DNA of 64,000 nt. Origin: Candidatus Nomurabacteria bacterium (lineage in GTDB: Bacteria; Patescibacteriota; Minisyncoccia; Phycocordibacterales; UBA918). The DNA is taken from positions 16,502 through 80,501 of the forward strand of contig JACKGF010000002.1 in the NCBI GenBank assembly GCA_020632095.1, read 5' to 3'. The position numbers and the translations under genes are program-made. The notes beneath the pieces were generated by a model. That model was not told the DNA's origin. It did not search any database and was given only the letters and a program-made list of their open reading frames with translations. Positions 5,203 to 35,469 of this stretch are shown here, one piece after another (position 1 is the first letter of the stretch; each line of letters opens with the position of its first letter).

Positions 5203-6813
5203 TTAGACAGTAAAATTATTTATTGAGTACAAGTTGCTATCATCACTTTCTGGAGCTTTAGGAGCTGCAGGTTGAGACTGTAGAGTTTCTTGTCTATCAA
5301 CATTTGATTGAGACGGGTTTCTATCAATGAATCCTCCTTGATTTGAATATTGATTATTAACACTAGCTACATAAGGAGGTTTTTCTTCTGGATTGGCAGA
5401 TGGATTTTGCTGAGCTTGGATATTTTGTGAATCTGATTCAGTAGCTTCATTTTTCTCAGCCGGCGCTTCATTATGATTTAGTATTTTTTCATACCACGGT
5501 AGATGAGTTTTTTCTGGTTCAGCTTTTTCTGATTCTACTTGAGTAGCTTGAACTACCTCATTTGATTGAGTCGGTTGAACCGGAGCAACCGGTGACACTA
5601 TCTGAGTTGGCGGGTTGTAGACAAAACTTTCAGCTGGTTTTTCTGTTACCTCGGGCGTATTTTGTACTGGTGTACCATAGGTAACTTTTGGCTCTTCAGT
5701 TTTTTCTGGAGCAACAGTTTCAGACTGACTAAACTTAGAGTAATTATGGATTGACTCTGGCTGATTCACTACTTGCGACGGCTCTTCTTTAGGAGAATCA
5801 GCTTCACTTCTGTTTGACACAGGATTCTCAGTTGGTGAATTATAAGAAGCAAAATCAGGAGCCGGAAAGACTGTGTCACTTGCGAGGTTTTCAGATACAG
5901 CAGTGGCAGTGGCCACTACAGACAATGGCGTATGATCACTCAAACGCTGGGCCATCTCTTGGTGAGATACCATTTTTGCACCTGTTCCTTCATCACGCAT
6001 TCGCTTGAGGATTACTTCCAAATCTTCATTAGAAAAGTAATCAATTGTTAGCTTGCCACCAAAATCGGTCTTTTGGATTTGTACACGAGTTCCAAGAGTT
6101 TCAGTAAACTGTTTTTCAAATTCAATCAAATGTGCATCAATATCATCACCCGACTTTTTCCGTACTTTATCCGTCGCAATTTTACGCACAATTCGTTCCA
6201 CCTCACGTACCGATAGTTTTTTCAATAGGATTTCTCTAAAAATGACTTCTTGTTCCTCTGGACGATCGGTTAACATCAGTAGAGTACGCGCATGACCCTC
6301 ACTCAACTCACCACGCTTAAGCGAAGTTAGAATATGTTCAGGCAAAGCCAATAGACGGATAGAATTGGAAACATATTCTCGACTGCGACCCATCTTCTGG
6401 GCGACTTGAACGTGAGATAATTTGAAAACATCAGCTAATTGTTGAAAAGCTAACGCGCGATCGACCGCATTTAAGTCTTCGCGTTGGAGGTTTTCGATAA
6501 TAGCCAGCTCGAGTTTTTCTTGCTCATTTTGTTCACCATCACGAATTATCACCGGCACCTGTGCCACTCCGGCCAGCTTACTCGCTCGCAAACGACGCTC
6601 ACCCGCAATTAGTTCATACTCCGAGTAAAAAGTACCATCATCGCGATGAATTTCGTTGCGCGTTACCGTCAGTGGTTGCAACACACCATACATCCGGATT
6701 GAATCCGCTAGTTCCTGAAGCTTGTGTTGATCAAACTCCCGTCTTGGCTGAAACGGGTTTGGAACCACTTTTTCAACCTCCACCCAATATATTGAATCAC
6801 CCTGAAATGCCAT
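5203..6813 (-). CDS. parB: ParB/Spo0J-family partition protein with a long low-complexity C-terminal tail
   Basis: ParB box motifs (LIAGERRLRASKLAG, HTH region VAQKMGRSREYVSNSIRLL). The last ~250 aa are P/T/E/Q/S-rich with no recognisable domain. Confidence 0.85.
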   Translation of the reverse strand: MAFQGDSIYWVEVEKVVPNPFQPRREFDQHKLQELADSIRMYGVLQPLTVTRNEIHRDDGTFYSEYELIAGERRLRASKLAGVAQVPVIIRDGEQNEQEKLELAIIENLQREDLNAVDRALAFQQLADVFKLSHVQVAQKMGRSREYVSNSIRLLALPEHILTSLKRGELSEGHARTLLMLTDRPEEQEVIFREILLKKLSVREVERIVRKIATDKVRKKSGDDIDAHLIEFEKQFTETLGTRVQIQKTDFGGKLTIDYFSNEDLEVILKRMRDEGTGAKMVSHQEMAQRLSDHTPLSVVATATAVSENLASDTVFPAPDFASYNSPTENPVSNRSEADSPKEEPSQVVNQPESIHNYSKFSQSETVAPEKTEEPKVTYGTPVQNTPEVTEKPAESFVYNPPTQIVSPVAPVQPTQSNEVVQATQVESEKAEPEKTHLPWYEKILNHNEAPAEKNEATESDSQNIQAQQNPSANPEEKPPYVASVNNQYSNQGGFIDRNPSQSNVDRQETLQSQPAAPKAPESDDSNLYSINNFTV

Positions 6814-6969: not shown

Positions 6970-7051
6970 GCCTCGGTGGCGGAATTGGTAGACGCGCACG
7001 ACTCAAAATCGTGTTCCGAAAGGGGTGAGGGTTCGATTCCCTCCCGAGGCA
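6970..7051 (+). tRNA. tRNA-Leu (anticodon CAA), long variable arm
   Basis: Cloverleaf by eye: acceptor gcctcgg/ccgaggc, anticodon loop cuCAAaa, T-loop ggttcgattcc. CCA is not encoded. Confidence 0.9.
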
Positions 7052-7052
7052 C

Positions 7053-7548
7053 AAAAATCGTGTTCCGAAAGGCTGAAATGATTCGGGGAATCATTTCAGA
7101 AGGTTGCCTGATATTTTATGACGTTAGGAAATAAAATGTCGACAACCTGTACTGCGCCGGTACGGCGGGAGGGTTCGATTCCCTCCCGAGGCACAAGAAA
7201 ACCGCGTTTAGCGGTTTTCTTGTGCCGAGAGAACAGTCTGGGAGACTGTTCGTGGGGGTGTCGAAAAGGTTGCCAGCTGTTTTGGAGCCTGCGACAAAAC
7301 GGCGACAACCTATACTGAACATGTAATGTTCGATTCCCTCCCGAGGCACAAATAACCAACCTGATACGCGCTAGCGTTCAGGTTGTTGTTATTTGTAGCC
7401 TCGGGAGGGGATCGAAAGCCACAGACTCATGTGAATTTCGAAGCGAAGCGGAGAAAGAGAGAGTCGAGGCAGGGTCGTGAGCGACATATTTTTAACGAGT
7501 AAGCGAGTATAAAAATAGTTGACTCCTGACTGATTCCCTCCCGAGGCA
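7053..7548 (+). repeat. three direct repeats of the tRNA-Leu(CAA) 3' end plus one inverted degenerate copy (att-site-like remnants)
   Basis: gagggttcgattccctcccgaggca recurs at 7168-7193, 7328-7348 and 7532-7548. An inverted degenerate copy sits at 7398-7420. Each unit starts with a terminator-like hairpin. Confidence 0.75.
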
Positions 7549-7627
7549 CATAATTTACAATCTAATAATTTGACAAACATATACTTTTAGTGTATACTGT
7601 GATTTGTTATTTTTTGGAGCACAAAAA

Positions 7628-7951
7628 ATGTCGTACATTTCACCTTGGTTGAACGTTGGTTGTGGAGAGGCAACTCCGGAAGGTTGGGTGCTTGGTAACT
7701 TGTACTACCATAGCTCGATTATGGACTTGCTCACTCGAGACGAGATGACTGGTTATCCCCACAACGGGGGTGAACACTCACTATGCCTCAATATCGAGGC
7801 CCTTGGAGAGGACGGTATCGAAACTTTCCTTAGTCTCGTAGAGGAGCGATATCAGGGCAGTAGTGAGATCGTTACTGAACGAGTCCGAGCCTTCACTGAT
7901 CGAGTTCGATCAAAATTAAACGACTGGAAGAAGGCTTCGTCAGAAGCTTAA
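7628..7951 (+). CDS. hypothetical protein (possible island cargo)
   Basis: ORF with GGAG 9 nt upstream of the ATG at 7628 and no recognisable domain. It sits between the tRNA-end repeats and a terminator. Confidence 0.45.
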   Translation: MSYISPWLNVGCGEATPEGWVLGNLYYHSSIMDLLTRDEMTGYPHNGGEHSLCLNIEALGEDGIETFLSLVEERYQGSSEIVTERVRAFTDRVRSKLNDWKKASSEA

Positions 7952-31418: not shown

Positions 31419-31904
31419 CTACTTAATCATTCGTCTTTTTTGGTTCATACCACGATGAGTAGACTGCAAACTATGACAATTGGGACATAAAATCCTGAGA
31501 TTTTTTAGTCGATTATCAAGGCGGTCACCATTTATATGATCCAATTCAACAGGGATTCTACCATCTTCAGCCTGTTCTGCCCAGCCACAAATCTCACACT
31601 CAGGTTTCATTAAACCCTCATAAAATAATCTATGTTTCAGCTTATAACTCTGACACTTTGAACCCTTTACTAAAATTTCTGATAATTCACTTTTGGGTAA
31701 AAATGAAAAAATTCGATTCTTTCTCCATCCTTTTCCTGTGAAGTGAGTAGTATTTAGGTTTAATTCTTCAATATTTTGTTTGATTTGCACATAGTTACCA
31801 CCAGCCGGAACTAAGCCCAGGACTTTAATCACTTCTCTAACACTATAAGAGCTCTTTACTGCTTTTTTCAGATCATCATTACTCCATTTTTTCTTACGTG
31901 ACAT
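31419..31904 (-). CDS. HNH endonuclease
   Basis: CEICGW...ELDHINGDRLDNRLKNLRILCPNCH (HNH plus Zn-finger). Confidence 0.8.
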   Translation of the reverse strand: MSRKKKWSNDDLKKAVKSSYSVREVIKVLGLVPAGGNYVQIKQNIEELNLNTTHFTGKGWRKNRIFSFLPKSELSEILVKGSKCQSYKLKHRLFYEGLMKPECEICGWAEQAEDGRIPVELDHINGDRLDNRLKNLRILCPNCHSLQSTHRGMNQKRRMIK

Positions 31905-31999
31905 ATTATTATGGTATAGATATAATTCTAACACAATTTACAAGTACTCCACATAAAAATTTTTATATTTTTGATAAATAGTGCTATAGTGTCACTCAT

Positions 32000-32072
32000 G
32001 TCCTGGTGGCGAAGTGGTTAACGCTTCGGTTTGCAAAACCGACATGCGTGGGTTCGACTCCCACCCAGGACT
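32000..32072 (+). tRNA. tRNA-Cys (anticodon GCA)
   Basis: Acceptor gtcctgg/ccaggac, anticodon loop uuGCAaa. Confidence 0.85.
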
Positions 32073-32250
32073 CACGACAGTACAAGAGCAGACTGGTAAA
32101 TCCCTGGGTGGAAGTCGAACCAAGGTTCGCCCTGTTACAGAGGCGGTACACCTTTTGGACAGATTATTCTTTCAGTCTAATCTTCCTCAAAAGGTCTTGC
32201 AAAACGCCCCCGGCATTTTGAACCCATAGAGGACTAACAACAAAACGTAT

Positions 32251-33682
32251 GTAATAAAGAAGTAGAAATGTCCTCCCTAAAGAAATAGAAATGTCCTCCC
32301 GCAAGGGAGGACATTTCCTGTATGTTGTTGGTTCATGCACAACAACAAAAACATCATACTGACGGAAGCAGAAAAAGAAAAGGGAGAAATCATTAAAGGG
32401 TGTACTGAGGGTGATTATACAAATAGTGAAGCAGCAGAAAGACTAGGTTTGTCAGTTAGGCAGGTACGAAGACTAAAGCGTAAAGTTGAGGTGTTTGGAG
32501 TGGAAGGAATTCTGCATGGTCTCAAGGGGTCGCAGTCACACCGCAAGATAGACACAAAACAAGAAAAGAAAGTGTTAAAGTTCCTGAAAAAGAAAGACCA
32601 TCACGACTTCGGTCCAACGTTTGCGATGGAAAAGCTTGAGGAATTAGAGAACATCATTCTTGATGTTGGTACCGTTCGTCGCATCATGGTCGACGCTGAT
32701 CTCTGGAAACCCAAACAACAACGAATCAAACAATCACACAGACAGTGGCGCGAGCCAATGCTTCGCTATGGTGAGCTCATACAATACGATGGAAGCTACC
32801 ATGACTGGAACGAAGACGGTGAGGAGGAGTGCCTTCTCAAAGCCATCGACGACGCAACGAGTATTGTTACGAAAGCCGTATTTGACGATCATGAAGGTAT
32901 CGTGCCCACCTTTCGCTTCTGGTGGAAGTATATCGAGCGCCACGGGCGTCCACGGGCCATATACCTAGACAAATTCAGCACATACAAGGTCAATCATAAA
33001 AGCGCACAGGATAACATTCACTTCATGACACAGTTTGAGCGAGCCATGGAAACATTGGACATCAAGATTATCACTGCCCACTCACCAGAAGCAAAAGGTC
33101 GTGTCGAAAGGGGCTTTCGCACACATCAGGACAGGCTCGTGAAGGAACTTCGTCTGGCAAAGAAGAAGAACCAAGACGAGATGAATGACTTTCTCGAACA
33201 CACCTATCTCCCCAAGCACAACGGAACGTTTGGCAGAACTCCACGTGACCCCAGAGACGCTCATCGGCCACTGACAGACATTCTCAAAAAGAAACTCTCG
33301 TCCATATTCTCCAAACACTATCGCCGCATCGTTAAGAACGACTTCACTATTCAATGGAATGGACGATGGTTTCAGCTTCTTAACAATCAACCGACTACGG
33401 TATACAAAAAAGATGAGGTGATTATGGAAGAGTGGCTCGATAACTCCATACACATCCGTCACACACGAAACAAAGAAGTGTATCTGATATATCAAGAATT
33501 ACCGAACAAACCGAAACAGGTACGCCGACCACCGACTGTCTTGGAGCGAAAGAGTACCGCACACAAGCCGGCACCTGATCATCCATGGAGAAAGAAAAGA
33601 TAAAAAAACAAAAATTTGCTCTGACGTATTACACAACGTATTAATTAACTTGAACAGAGGACACTTCTACTTCACTGCAACA
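32251..33682 (+). mobile_element. IS copy 1 (~1432 bp, rve-type DDE transposase; ISNCY/IS1202- or IS481-like)
   Basis: 100% identical to 58235-59666. Terminal inverted repeats GAAGTAGAAATGTCCTC / GAGGACACTTCTACTTC. Flanked by a 17-bp direct repeat ctaacaacaaaacgtat. Confidence 0.85.
32335..33603 (+). CDS. DDE transposase (N-terminal HTH, rve-like core)
   Basis: HTH motif (AAERLGLSVRQVRRLKRK) and a D...D...E triad (YDGSYHDW, IYLDKFSTY, PEAKGRVERGFRT). Confidence 0.85.
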   Translation: MHNNKNIILTEAEKEKGEIIKGCTEGDYTNSEAAERLGLSVRQVRRLKRKVEVFGVEGILHGLKGSQSHRKIDTKQEKKVLKFLKKKDHHDFGPTFAMEKLEELENIILDVGTVRRIMVDADLWKPKQQRIKQSHRQWREPMLRYGELIQYDGSYHDWNEDGEEECLLKAIDDATSIVTKAVFDDHEGIVPTFRFWWKYIERHGRPRAIYLDKFSTYKVNHKSAQDNIHFMTQFERAMETLDIKIITAHSPEAKGRVERGFRTHQDRLVKELRLAKKKNQDEMNDFLEHTYLPKHNGTFGRTPRDPRDAHRPLTDILKKKLSSIFSKHYRRIVKNDFTIQWNGRWFQLLNNQPTTVYKKDEVIMEEWLDNSIHIRHTRNKEVYLIYQELPNKPKQVRRPPTVLERKSTAHKPAPDHPWRKKR

Positions 33683-33748
33683 CTAACAACAAAACGTATT
33701 GCGAAAACAACCAGAATAAGTTACACTCTCGGTCATAAATAAGTATAT

Positions 33749-33821
33749 CCGCCCTTAGCTCAGTTGGTAGAGCAGCTCCCTCTTAAGGAGACGGTCCAAG
33801 GTTCGAGCCCTTGAGGGCGGA
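33749..33821 (+). tRNA. tRNA-Lys (anticodon CTT)
   Basis: Acceptor ccgccct/agggcgg, anticodon loop cuCUUaa. Confidence 0.85.
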
Positions 33822-34121
33822 CAACGTTAAGAAAAATAGTGCTGGTGCACTATTTTTTAGTTGTCCGGGGCGGAGACATAATTTTTCCTCCTTTCCTAGA
33901 GGAAAAATTGTCGAGCCAGGGTCGCAAGTACTTACTAGAATTTGAGCAAAGCGAAAAATTATAGTTAGTAACTTGTGACGACAAATTTGAACGCAGTGAA
34001 AATATGTACGGCCGAATAAATAATCTGGTAGATTATTTTTTTAGGGCTCGAAGCCCGATTGAGATATTTTGTGAGCAGAGCGAAACAAAATATCCAATTG
34101 GGACACTGGTTGTGTAACAAC

Positions 34122-34141
34122 CGAGCCCTTGAGGGCGGACA
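34122..34141 (+). repeat. direct repeat of the tRNA-Lys 3' end (att-like remnant)
   Basis: cgagcccttgagggcggaca lies 300 bp downstream of the tRNA. It is preceded by a ggttgtgtaacaacc hairpin. Confidence 0.6.
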
Positions 34142-34146
34142 ATCGC

Positions 34147-34188
34147 AAAACAAAATTCACCAGTCTTAAGACTGGTGAATTTTGTTTT
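34147..34188. repeat. 42-bp perfect palindrome
   Basis: aaaacaaaattcaccagtcttaagactggtgaattttgtttt. Confidence 0.8.
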
Positions 34189-34464
34189 AGTCAGCAAACT
34201 GCTTTACTGACGGCGATTGTCCGAGCCGCAGGCATGTTTCGAGCGCGCTTCCAAGCGCGAGAAACAGCCGAGGTGGGGTGGCGAACACTTAGTAAATTTA
34301 GCACGAAGTGCATAAATATACTTAGTGATTCGTGACGACAACTTCCGCCTAGGGTTATTCCGCCTAGGGTTACCCTTGGTAAGGCTTTCTTTAGTAGGAT
34401 AACCTCCCCAAAAAAGTAGCCTTGAAATAAAAACTCTGCTATACTCGTCACCGTAACCACTCTT

Positions 34465-34546
34465 GCGCGGGTGGCGAAATTGGTAGACGCGCTAGTCTTA
34501 GGAACTAGTGGAGCAATCCGTGGAGGTTCAATTCCTCTCCCGCGCA
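34465..34546 (+). tRNA. tRNA-Leu (anticodon TAG)
   Basis: Acceptor gcgcggg/cccgcgc, anticodon loop cuUAGga, long variable arm. An extended -10 promoter (TGcTATACT) sits at 34438-34446. Confidence 0.9.
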
Positions 34547-35345
34547 CTGTTCAATAAAATAGCCTTCCCGAAAGGGAGGGTTATTTTATTGGTACAGTGC
34601 GGAGGGAAGAAAAGTCTGGGGGACTTTTCGGGAGGGATTGAAAAGGTTGCCAGCACTTTCTGGAGCTTGCGAACAGAAAGAGCGACAACCTATACTGAAT
34701 TCGTAGAATTCAATTCCTCTCCCGCGCACTGTTCAATAAAATAGCCTTCCCGAAAGGGAGGGTTATTTTATTGGTACAGTGCGGAGGGAAGAAAAGTCTG
34801 GGGGACTTTTCGGGAGGGATTGAAAAGGTTGCCAGCACTTTCTGGAGCTTGCGAACAGAAAGAGCGACAACCTATACTGAATTCGTAGAATTCAATTCCT
34901 CTCCCGCGCACTGTTCAATAAAATAGCCTTCCCGAAAGGGAGGGTTATTTTATTGGTACAGTGCGGAGGGAAGAAAAGTCTGGGGGACTTTTCGGGAGGG
35001 ATTGAAAAGGTTGCCAGCACTTTCTGGAGCTTGCGAACAGAAAGAGCGACAACCTATACTGAATTCGTAGAATTCAATTCCTCTCCCGCGCACTGTTCAA
35101 TAAAATAGCCTTCCCGAAAGGGAGGGTTATTTTATTGGTACAGTGCGGAGGGAAGAAAAGTCTGGGGGACTTTTCGGGAGGGATTGAAAAGGTTGCCAGC
35201 ACTTTCTGGAGCTTGCGAACAGAAAGAGCGACAACCTATACTGAATTCGTAGAATTCAATTCCTCTCCCGCGCACTGTTCAATAAAATAGCCTTCCCGAA
35301 AGGGAGGGTTATTTTATTGAACAGTGCGGAGGGAAACAAAGTCTG
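34547..35345 (+). repeat. 182-bp tandem direct repeat array (4 identical units plus a degenerate fifth). Each unit ends with the last 21 nt of tRNA-Leu(TAG)
   Basis: Units lie at 34547-34728, 34729-34910, 34911-35092 and 35093-35274, with a partial unit from 35275 to about 35345. Each unit begins with a terminator-like hairpin aataaaatagccttccc-gaaa-gggagggttattttatt. Confidence 0.9.
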
Positions 35346-35469
35346 GGGGACTTTTCCTAATACAGAAAATTATACAGCTAGATACATTTACAAACCCTCA
35401 ACTATTTGCTTTATTAGTTATGGAGTTAACTGTTTATAACCAGTAGTACTTTCAGGGAAAGGTTTAAAA

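Follow-up and report, generated by a model that had tools for sequence, protein, structure and literature searches.

Behind the gene for tRNA-Leu(CAA) of a Candidatus Nomurabacteria bacterium (Patescibacteria; Candidate Phyla Radiation, CPR) lies an array of three small non-coding units on the strand of the tRNA, each of which ends in a copy of the 3' end of this tRNA. The array is found near the beginning of the 64,000-nucleotide stretch analysed here (contig JACKGF010000002.1, positions 16,502 to 80,501; hereafter the window, in which all positions are numbered from its first letter). A preliminary description based on the letters alone had read the locus as the fossil footprint of serial integrations into the tRNA 3' end. 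Judged by their sequences, two of the units belong to one family of folded cassettes (type A) and the third to another (type B). Both families recur in CPR genomes, and together they form what is apparently a previously undescribed group of tRNA-trailing elements; full-text literature searches, also with the motif string, found no published description of them.

Copies of the tRNA 3' End

The 19-nt core GATTCCCTCCCGAGGCACA is found four times without mismatch on the + strand, once inside tRNA-Leu(CAA) (position 7035) and three times downstream of it (7177, 7332 and 7532). By chance 0.01 occurrences were expected, and four matches were reached in none of 100 shuffled sequences, which bears out the repetition that the preliminary description had reported. 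Two further observations of that description need another explanation than the one given. The inverted copy of the core is indeed present at 7398-7416 (95% complementary, one mismatch in 19 nt), not as a trace of integration, however, but as one arm of a long hairpin, the other arm of which is core copy 3 (Table 1). The 19-nt duplicate directly behind the tRNA, at 7054-7072, is exact; together with core copy 2 it makes up the two halves of a single 49-nt partial tRNA copy reaching from position 36 to the 3' end, which, as read from the sequence, is interrupted by a 91-nt cassette (7073-7163).

An independent assembly (ENA ERZ27248697, contig k141_368132) contains the whole array with 100% identity and agrees base for base over 6970-7550, and three further contigs of the same strain (two from Logan, one from NCBI) each end inside tRNA-Leu(CAA). 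Since the two assemblies are concordant and the three units, by comparison of their cassettes, differ among themselves, an artefact and plain slippage are both excluded for this array.

Anatomy of the Units

A typical unit begins behind the tRNA with the hairpin of an intrinsic terminator, sometimes followed by a segment a, then usually by a hairpin Px, a segment b, the sequence GAAA and the helix P2. It continues with GUAC-U(G), the helix P3 with a GUA triloop, the tRNA copy, which spans T-loop to discriminator and one base more, and a second terminator. The element is about 140-200 nt long and non-coding. Segment b has the reverse-complement sequence of the T-loop and of the 3' strand of the T-stem in the core copy that follows it; the two together form the helix P1, which closes a three-way junction with P2 and P3. 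This junction, preceded by Px, defines the type A cassette. In type B a long hairpin stands between GGGTCG and GACTC(C/G)TGACC.

Of the three units behind tRNA-Leu(CAA) the second (7197-7352) is a canonical type A. The first (7053-7196) consists of the 49-nt partial tRNA copy split by Px-P2-P3, with a complete local T-arm in the place of P1, and the third (7353-7550) of the long hairpin with core copy 3, a type B cassette and core copy 4.

Table 1. Positions of the tRNA-Leu(CAA) array and of related arrays in the window (R1, covariance model built from the type A alignment)
Feature	Position	Strand	Evidence and remarks
tRNA-Leu(CAA), target gene	6970-7052	+	ARAGORN; Rfam RF00005, 61.1 bits (Rfam end 7051); last 19-28 nt are the repeated core
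Exact duplicate of tRNA 7005-7023 (anticodon-stem 3' strand and variable arm)	7054-7072	+	Repeat search, 100% identity
Unit 1, hairpin Px	7073-7099	+	Perfect 12-bp stem, GGG loop; within R1 match 7059-7180, 74.9 bits
Unit 1, helix P2, AAGGTTGCC ... CGACAACCT	7100-7148	+	Hallmark helix of type A; pattern match, aligned with 97 other copies
Unit 1, junction GTACTG and helix P3 (CGCCG-GTA-CGGCG)	7149-7167	+	Alignment, covariation of P3
Core copy 2	7169-7196	+	28 nt, equal to tRNA-Leu(CAA) 7027-7054; T-arm complete
Unit 2, terminator-type hairpin	7190-7226	+	Perfect 16-bp stem; outer pairs GGCAC / GTGCC use the last bases of core copy 2
Unit 2, hairpin Px, GAACAGTC-TGGGA-GACTGTTC	7231-7251	+	Conserved YGGGR loop; pattern match, alignment
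Unit 2, segment b (5' strand of P1)	7252-7265	+	Pairs, G.U wobbles included, with T-loop and T-stem 3' strand of core copy 3; covariation, fold
Unit 2, P2 (7266-7311), junction ATACTG, P3 (7317-7331)	7266-7331	+	R1 match 7214-7351, 108.1 bits, E = 4e-31
Core copy 3	7328-7352	+	25 nt, equal to tRNA-Leu(CAA) 7031-7055
Long hairpin: core copy 3 (5' arm), terminator-like palindrome, inverted core 7398-7416 (3' arm)	7329-7416	+	Inverted repeats; fold
Unit 3, type B cassette, GGGTCG - long hairpin - GACTCCTGACT	7458-7531	+	Type B nhmmer profile, 54 bits
Core copy 4	7532-7550	+	19 nt, equal to tRNA-Leu(CAA) 7035-7053; starts at T-loop position 4 like other type B units
Promoter-like TTGACA-17-TATACT (7570-7598) and open reading frame 7628-7951 (107 aa)	7570-7951	+	Context only
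tRNA-Cys 32000-32073: cassette of subfamily A'	32103-32237	-	Inverted repeat; R1 match 20.8 bits, E = 3e-4
tRNA-Lys 33749-33822: downstream families	33823-34345	+	Type B 33906-33988; divergent type A 34001-34142; type B 34262-34345
tRNA-Leu(UAG) 34465-34547: four 182-nt type A units and a shortened fifth	34527-35372	+	R1 matches, 114.9 bits each

The Same Families Behind Other tRNAs of the Window

When all seven tRNAs of the window were scanned, extra copies of the 3' end were found, besides tRNA-Leu(CAA), behind tRNA-Leu(UAG), tRNA-Lys and tRNA-Cys. The DNA between the copies is homologous from locus to locus: AAGGTTGCC...CGACAACCT is followed by (G/A)TACTG and a small hairpin, and a hairpin with a YGGGR loop stands ahead of it. 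In the array behind tRNA-Leu(UAG) the first three copies are 100% identical over 300 nt, their number being uncertain in a short-read assembly, and the fifth unit stops after the Px hairpin. The last 21 nt of the divergent type A module behind tRNA-Lys are a core copy (34122-34142). Behind tRNA-Cys the A' cassette (GACCTTTTG...CAAAAGGTGTAC) lies on the opposite strand, with a tRNA-Cys-like core facing the tRNA 3' end, an arrangement that looks like the result of an inversion between segment b and core. The covariance model recovered all type A units of the window, the divergent one behind tRNA-Lys and the inverted one behind tRNA-Cys included. No unit follows tRNA-Trp in the window; this tRNA is occupied in the relatives L084, L060, L109 and L167.

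Distribution in CPR Bacteria

The pattern AGGTTGCC-N22-40-CGACAACCTRTAC was scanned over one genome per species and matched at least 118 loci, with a complete module in about 105 among the matches listed. About 10 matches to the pattern were estimated to arise by chance, and 10 of the 118 listed loci had no module in the profile map. The listed loci come almost entirely from Patescibacteria and there from many classes (Saccharibacteria, Kaiserbacteria, Nomurabacteria, Paceibacteria, Minisyncoccia). Positions were mapped with a sequence profile and ARAGORN: 114 of 146 copies lie immediately 3' of a tRNA or of another copy and without exception share its strand. Among the tRNAs concerned 18 amino-acid specificities are represented. 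Runs of two to four modules are common, and some modules stand between two tRNAs of one cluster; the type B profile (nhmmer) gave 28 further matches within the same CPR loci. In the window three to four of the seven tRNAs are occupied, and so are 99 of 184 tRNAs in loci that had been selected for having at least one copy.

Some of these loci have peculiarities of their own. At L056 (5040-5340) a tRNA with an anticodon-loop intron of about 240 nt, missed by ARAGORN, is followed by three modules (one A, two A') with its 3' end. Ordinary-looking genes separate a tRNA or module from a further module at L131 (3313-5772), L125 (516-2594) and L150 (6486-7939); by their N-termini they may be ddl, ITPase-like and purA-like genes. 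The second module of L131 carries a partial core of the same tRNA-Ala.

Fold and Covariation

For the test of the structure Px/P1/P2/P3, 98 copies of type A were aligned. In this alignment 87.0% of the paired cells can pair, as compared with 38-45% when the partners are slid against each other. Double-sided changes number 493 versus 188 +/- 12 in shuffled alignments, the observed value being reached in none of 500 shuffles. Compensatory changes are found in P3 alone at five of its six pairs, and in P1 the pair 48-138 takes the forms CG (30 sequences), UA (29) and AU (17). Because the P1 pairs at T-loop positions covary, segment b tracks its particular tRNA. Among the mismatches G.U outnumbers A.C (198 versus 86), which identifies the strand in tRNA sense as the one that folds; covariation and the excess of G.U fit a folded DNA strand and an RNA alike and do not tell which of the two it is. 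The 182-nt unit behind tRNA-Leu(UAG) is predicted to fold as drawn with -81.8 kcal/mol (z-score -9.2), and the fold of the whole tRNA-Leu(CAA) array has a z-score of -13.2. The aligned sequences thus point to an element that folds into a T or Y, with a tRNA-specific stem and a generic apex, and to selection acting on this structure.

In 52 of the 71 gaps between tRNA and module there is a run of T, indicating a terminator between the two. The optional segment a, an inverted copy of the 3' strand of the acceptor stem, was found in 30 of the 71 modules. Its presence is not correlated with that of a downstream acceptor copy (14 modules have both, 46 just one); therefore it is more likely to lengthen the terminator hairpin onto the end of the real tRNA. 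An acceptor-like helix P0, formed by segment a and the downstream acceptor copy, was for the same lack of co-occurrence rejected as part of the conserved fold. Two other assignments were also discarded. A TTCGAA palindrome as target-site duplication does not agree with tRNAs whose T-loops read TTCAATT or TTCAAGT, where segment b is the reverse complement rather than a direct copy. An outward promoter within P2/P3 has only weak hexamer matches, and the conserved part of the P3 loop is the GUA triloop with its covarying closing pair, not a -10 box.

Insertion Polymorphism and Turnover

The loci L052 and L102 belong to close Nomurabacteria relatives, the aligned flanks of which are 95-99% identical, and differ at tRNA-Leu(UAA). 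In L102 three identical 142-nt units are placed between this tRNA and a terminator, each ending in a 20-nt repeat of the tRNA 3' end, TCAATTCCCGCCCCGGGCAC. L052 is the empty site: its tRNA-Leu(UAA) is directly followed by the terminator that in L102 comes after the units. In the more distant relative L158 the element behind tRNA-Leu(UAA) is about 93% identical to that of L102, terminator included, and its P3 differs by a double compensatory change; the intergenic DNA 5' of the two tRNAs cannot be aligned. L158 has two more features of interest. At about 1030-1100, 5' of the real tRNA, a Px hairpin is joined to a 5' fragment of tRNA-Leu(UAA). At 1400-1720 a unit with the usual terminator and segment b has a type B cassette in place of P2/P3, and the cassettes therefore appear to be interchangeable within the same tRNA-specific frame.

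Arrays with mixed cassette subfamilies, such as that behind tRNA-Leu(CAA) in the window and those of L056, L069, L083, L107, L145 and L158, require more than tandem duplication. In one genome the modules behind tRNA-Ser(CGA) (L068) and tRNA-Lys(UUU) (L075) have P2-P3 regions with two mismatches in 85 nt; the near-identity begins at P2 and reaches five bases into the T-loop, and b and core are specific to each of the two tRNAs.

Among metagenome contigs that share the tRNA-Leu(CAA) 3' end of the window, L170 and L172 are without a module and L171 and L174 have a single one, the core of which is degenerate, compared with three units here. In L174 the order of the tRNAs, Leu-CAA, Trp, Tyr, is that of the window. 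An empty-site allele of the window locus itself was not found in the JGI metagenomes. L175 (4181-4330) harbors an intact tRNA-Leu(CAA) of different sequence, 47 nt downstream of which follows an orphan 28-nt fragment equal to the 3' end of the window tRNA-Leu(CAA), and then miaA; it is a classical replaced-tRNA scar lacking a module. In L176 (OCZT010007096.1) 17 tRNA genes are tightly packed, reminiscent of a phage or a tRNA array, and one of them, a tRNA-Met, shares its 26-nt 3' end with tRNA-Leu(CAA) of the window.

These findings uphold one part of the preliminary description and not another. The array is variable among relatives, as that reading required, and inserted DNA is in fact bounded by direct copies of the tRNA 3' end, as the pair L102/L052 documents. 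The DNA between the repeats, on the other hand, is not made up of fossil remnants but of intact, conserved and structured cassettes from two families found in more than 100 CPR genomes. Nor can the open reading frame (ORF) that follows the array, 7628-7951, be called its cargo: it has a near-consensus promoter of its own, and nothing ties its arrival to the element. Among 5.8 billion proteins it has no homologue save itself (an NCBI hypothetical protein, 'Candidatus Nomurabacteria bacterium'). A different small ORF occupies its place in L174.

Searches for an Enzyme, a Parent Element or a Known Family

The absence of an integrase, already pointed out in the preliminary description, holds for the parts of the window tested by Pfam scans and with an XerD probe. 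The probe, a single sequence of low sensitivity, matched none of the ORFs of the window and none of 1853 ORFs at the module loci (about 800 kb; within about 4 kb of more than 100 copies). Neither Cas1 nor a casposase was found near any copy, and Pfam scans of the window proteins revealed no Nop or Cas gene nearby. In viral contigs a loose pattern for the cassette motif gave 44 matches, all of them coding or chance sequence; the tRNA core had none, and a 17-mer had one chance match with no tRNA nearby. In a search against Rfam 15 only tRNAs reached the gathering score, and scans of both arrays by E-value gave weak generic matches, mostly to models of miRNA-precursor hairpins. A hammerhead was dismissed by eye, the order of the junction being unlike that of the hammerhead core.

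The window is chromosomal CPR DNA with genes for TopA, RelA/SpoT, ParB, AhpC, MiaA, type IV secretion system (T4SS)-pilin/SLT proteins, Fic, IF-2 and RbfA. A phage origin was rejected, since the gene content is chromosomal and megablast against phage records yielded a single 50-nt chance match. ParB (5203-6813, - strand) is unusually long with 536 aa; its ParB domains stop at about residue 273, and no Pfam family matches the C-terminal half. A unit resembling an insertion sequence (IS), 32227-33716, adjoins the inverted module of tRNA-Cys. It is characterized by 17-nt inverted repeats (32259-32275 / 33657-33673) and by the direct repeat ACTAACAACAAAACGTAT at 32233 and 33682, and its ORF (32335-33603, 422 aa) matches helix-turn-helix domains only. 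Between tRNA-Leu(UAA) and tRNA-Cys there is a free-standing ORF for an HNH endonuclease (31419-31934, - strand, 171 aa). No homologues of the HNH endonuclease, of the IS-like transposase or of the ORFs flanking the arrays in the window were found near other copies. Short tandem duplications occur in 34343-34372, where TTCCGCCTAGGGTTA is present twice just 5' of tRNA-Leu(UAG), and in 32255-32300, where a 23-nt unit is present twice at the left end of the IS-like unit.

Comparison with Known Systems

Tandem attachment (att) sites at tRNA genes arise by serial site-specific integration, as in cis-mobilizable elements (CIMEs) and in the 'accretion' of integrative and conjugative elements (ICEs) of Streptococcus thermophilus, and tRNA-flanked islands such as the tycheposons of Prochlorococcus are a related case. 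The arrays share with CIMEs and tycheposons the direct copies of the tRNA 3' segment as block boundaries, the intact tRNA, serial accumulation, the lack of a recombinase of their own, and occupied as well as empty sites. They differ in that the units are 140-200 nt long and entirely non-coding, belong to phylum-wide families and form a covarying three-way junction with a stem built from the target. Of the features of an att scar, the bounding repeats and the reconstituted tRNA are present. A recombinase was not found by the Pfam scans and the low-sensitivity probe, nor a parent element in viral contigs, and the DNA between the repeats is not the heterogeneous DNA of phage or ICE remnants. We know of no integrase-carrying parent of these elements.

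With integron attC sites, for example the Vibrio cholerae repeats, the elements have in common that they are arrays of imperfect palindromes (there of about 60-140 nt); the fold of the single strand is conserved there over the sequence, and may be so here. A second likeness is to the forked hairpin of attP(+) of the CTX phage, where two inverted copies of the target anneal and mimic the chromosomal site, as b and core may do here. Unlike integrons and CTX, however, they have no IntI or attI, no cassette ORFs, no phage genome and a stem that differs from tRNA to tRNA, and the use of a single strand is in their case only inferred. The R''/R' boxes (RYYYAAC / GTTRRRY) are missing in the sequences read, and the Pfam scans of the window revealed no recombinase beside the arrays, where an IntI/attI/Pc platform would have one.

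Neisseria intergenic mosaic elements (NIMEs) are blocks of 50-150 bp between 20-bp dRS3 repeats; repetitive extragenic palindromes (REP), bacterial interspersed mosaic elements (BIME) and miniature inverted-repeat transposable elements (MITEs) are further structured intergenic repeats. Here as there, short non-coding blocks rich in hairpins are separated by a constant repeat of some 20 bp, often double as terminators and are presumably mobilised in trans. In contrast to these repeats, the present elements take their constant repeat from the 3' end of the tRNA next to them, so that it changes with the locus, and copies occur behind tRNA genes only. The inverted repeat is derived from the target rather than being a terminal inverted repeat bound by a transposase, and there is no short target-site duplication of fixed length. 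What distinguishes the elements from a MITE is that the b/core inverted repeat is tRNA-specific and covaries with the target, the duplication being 19-30 nt of the tRNA.

A candidate structured RNA that directly trails a tRNA in the same orientation and contains T-arm and acceptor sequence is reminiscent of the t-elements of plant mitochondria, of the MALAT1-associated small cytoplasmic RNA (mascRNA) and of dicistronic tRNA-small nucleolar RNA genes. T-elements and mascRNA differ from the present elements by a minihelix, cut by RNase P and RNase Z, with a free T-loop and an unpaired discriminator: here the T-loop takes part in P1, the discriminator too is in many cases paired, tRNA and module are as a rule separated by a terminator, and the tRNA-like part repeats the neighbor exactly. 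In casposon- and CRISPR-type integration a target at the tRNA 3' end or in a repeat is duplicated by staggered cleavage. Likewise, each unit here is bounded by the duplicated target, and growth may be polar beside the intact 'leader' tRNA; unlike there, the duplicated length varies (19-30 nt) and each unit contains an inverted copy of the target. In TIGR arrays short constant repeats alternate with variable spacers, and a Tas gene is adjacent (PMC12045711). A guide array of the TIGR or CRISPR type was rejected, the units here being 140-180 nt long with conserved interiors.

All in all, the arrays operate in the manner of CIME accretion, and in their build they recall attC arrays, the CTX hairpin and NIME/dRS3 arrays, without having the defining features of any of these. 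They may be counted among small tRNA-gene insertion elements mobilised in trans, and there is a real chance that their mechanism, perhaps with a guide-like use of b, is new.

Interpretation

We favor, at about an even chance of being right, the view that the units are non-autonomous, structured mini-elements which insert at the 3' ends of tRNA genes and are lost from there by recombination between T-loop and 3' end, come with a terminator of their own, and build up through serial entry and unequal crossing-over. Entry and loss would both take place inside the segment of about 20 nt from the T-loop to the 3' end. An insertion would leave the tRNA intact and push the old 3' end downstream, the intrinsic terminator of the element keeping the tRNA properly terminated. 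The finding of a terminator in most gaps between tRNA and element fits a DNA element that spares the function of its host gene. The enzyme would be supplied in trans as a host or otherwise unlinked recombinase that recognises the folded single strand; alternatively, RecA alone might act on the tRNA homology after uptake of DNA. Repeated entry beside the tRNA together with unequal crossing-over could then produce mixed as well as homogeneous arrays.

Several observations weigh against mobility of this kind. With b and core matched to one tRNA, an element cannot simply hop to another, and the spread over 18 specificities calls for a templating step or for many separate retargeting events. The pair L102/L052 could equally be explained by deletion between direct repeats. 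Pfam scans of 18 window proteins and the XerD probe revealed no recombinase near the elements, and no free, circular or phage-borne form was found. The invariant sequences at the base of P2 and in the junction, conserved over the CPR classes, would suit a cellular RNA or protein partner as well, and the apical loops (GNA, GNNA, CUUG), the tandem G.A pairs and the G.U wobbles are compatible with RNA.

The last two points lead to the possibility, which we hold to be the smaller one without dismissing it, that the units function as RNA, namely as 3' trailers co-transcribed with the tRNA in which b (and a) pairs with the real tRNA end or with the decoy copy. The P1-P2-P3 junction would be a switch or a protein platform for folding, processing or read-through of the tRNA, or the source of a separate small RNA; the copy of the tRNA end would be kept by selection and spread by ordinary duplication, all of which is compatible with mobility of the DNA. 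Such a function would account for the sense-strand covariation with G.U above A.C, for GNRA, CUUG and GAA apical loops flanked by tandem G.A pairs and for the invariant nucleotides just mentioned. It would also account for modules between clustered tRNAs (L153, L157, L100) or 30-43 nt past a tRNA without terminator (L062, L066, L077, L091, L120), for the 16 modules (of 71) whose segment a complements the real tRNA end even though the acceptor part is missing from the downstream copy, and for similar loops at orthologous tRNAs of distant classes, e.g., Ser-GCU in L092 and L126. It agrees less well with the canonical terminator ahead of most modules, with stacks of two to four units and of mixed subfamilies that have no obvious use as a switch, with a presence that varies between close relatives and orthologous tRNAs, and with the absence of an Rfam family; moreover, the loops GUUA and GACA are GNNA rather than GNRA and also fit stable DNA mini-hairpins. 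A mobile element could also carry a built-in guide: b and a, beside the scaffold of Px, P2 and P3, might pair with the strand of a matching tRNA gene between T-loop and 3' end and direct the insertion by a recombinase or nuclease acting in trans. We consider this guide-directed homing improbable. By analogy with the logic of the bridge RNA of IS110 or of IS200/IS605, a new tRNA target would then require only a change of the guide; compared with these systems, the guide here would have about 10-20 nt, the targets would be tRNA genes as universal safe harbours, and no enzyme gene is linked.

Descent from integrase elements, the repeats being attL/attR scars of prophages or islands with interiors deleted down to 100-200 bp, appears quite unlikely to us. 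To its credit are the direct repeats of the tRNA 3' end, the identity of which falls with the distance from the tRNA (28, 25 and 19 nt), and the weak tendency in the same direction of other arrays, where the exact core of the tRNA-proximal unit is longer in seven, shorter in three and equal in nine; genes lie between modules in a few loci (L131, L125). But the DNA between the repeats represents two families conserved in sequence and structure, and the same covarying 140-nt fold in more than 100 genomes is hardly the product of random decay; units of 142-182 nt form perfect multi-copy arrays, no integrase or pseudogene of one was found in the window or at the module loci, and core and cassette motif were absent from the viral contigs. 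That nothing specific is involved, only tandem duplication by slippage or an artefact of assembling repetitive regions, we regard as scarcely credible. It could be invoked for the four 182-nt repeats behind tRNA-Leu(UAG), where short reads do not give a reliable copy number, and for the three contigs, two from Logan and one from NCBI, in which the sequence of this strain breaks off inside the tRNA; opposed to it are the agreement of the two independent assemblies over 6970-7550, the dissimilarity of the tRNA-Leu(CAA) units and the presence of homologues behind other tRNAs and in more than 100 other genomes.

Significance

CPR genomes are tiny and are thought to be poor in repetitive and selfish DNA. 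A sizeable share of the CPR tRNA genes sampled here nevertheless carries one to four folded elements of 140-200 nt. Whatever their nature, they account for the tRNA-fragment 'scars' in CPR genomes and are likely to cause contig breaks and mis-annotation of tRNAs in metagenome-assembled genomes of CPR bacteria; they can be annotated with the covariance model of the present alignment. If the elements act as RNA, they would be a cis element of tRNA expression common to the phylum and overlooked by annotation pipelines. If they are mobile, they would represent a minimal, enzyme-less parasite or commensal of tRNA genes with a stem copied from or matched to its target, and may serve as a model for the evolution of att-site specificity and possibly for programmable insertion.

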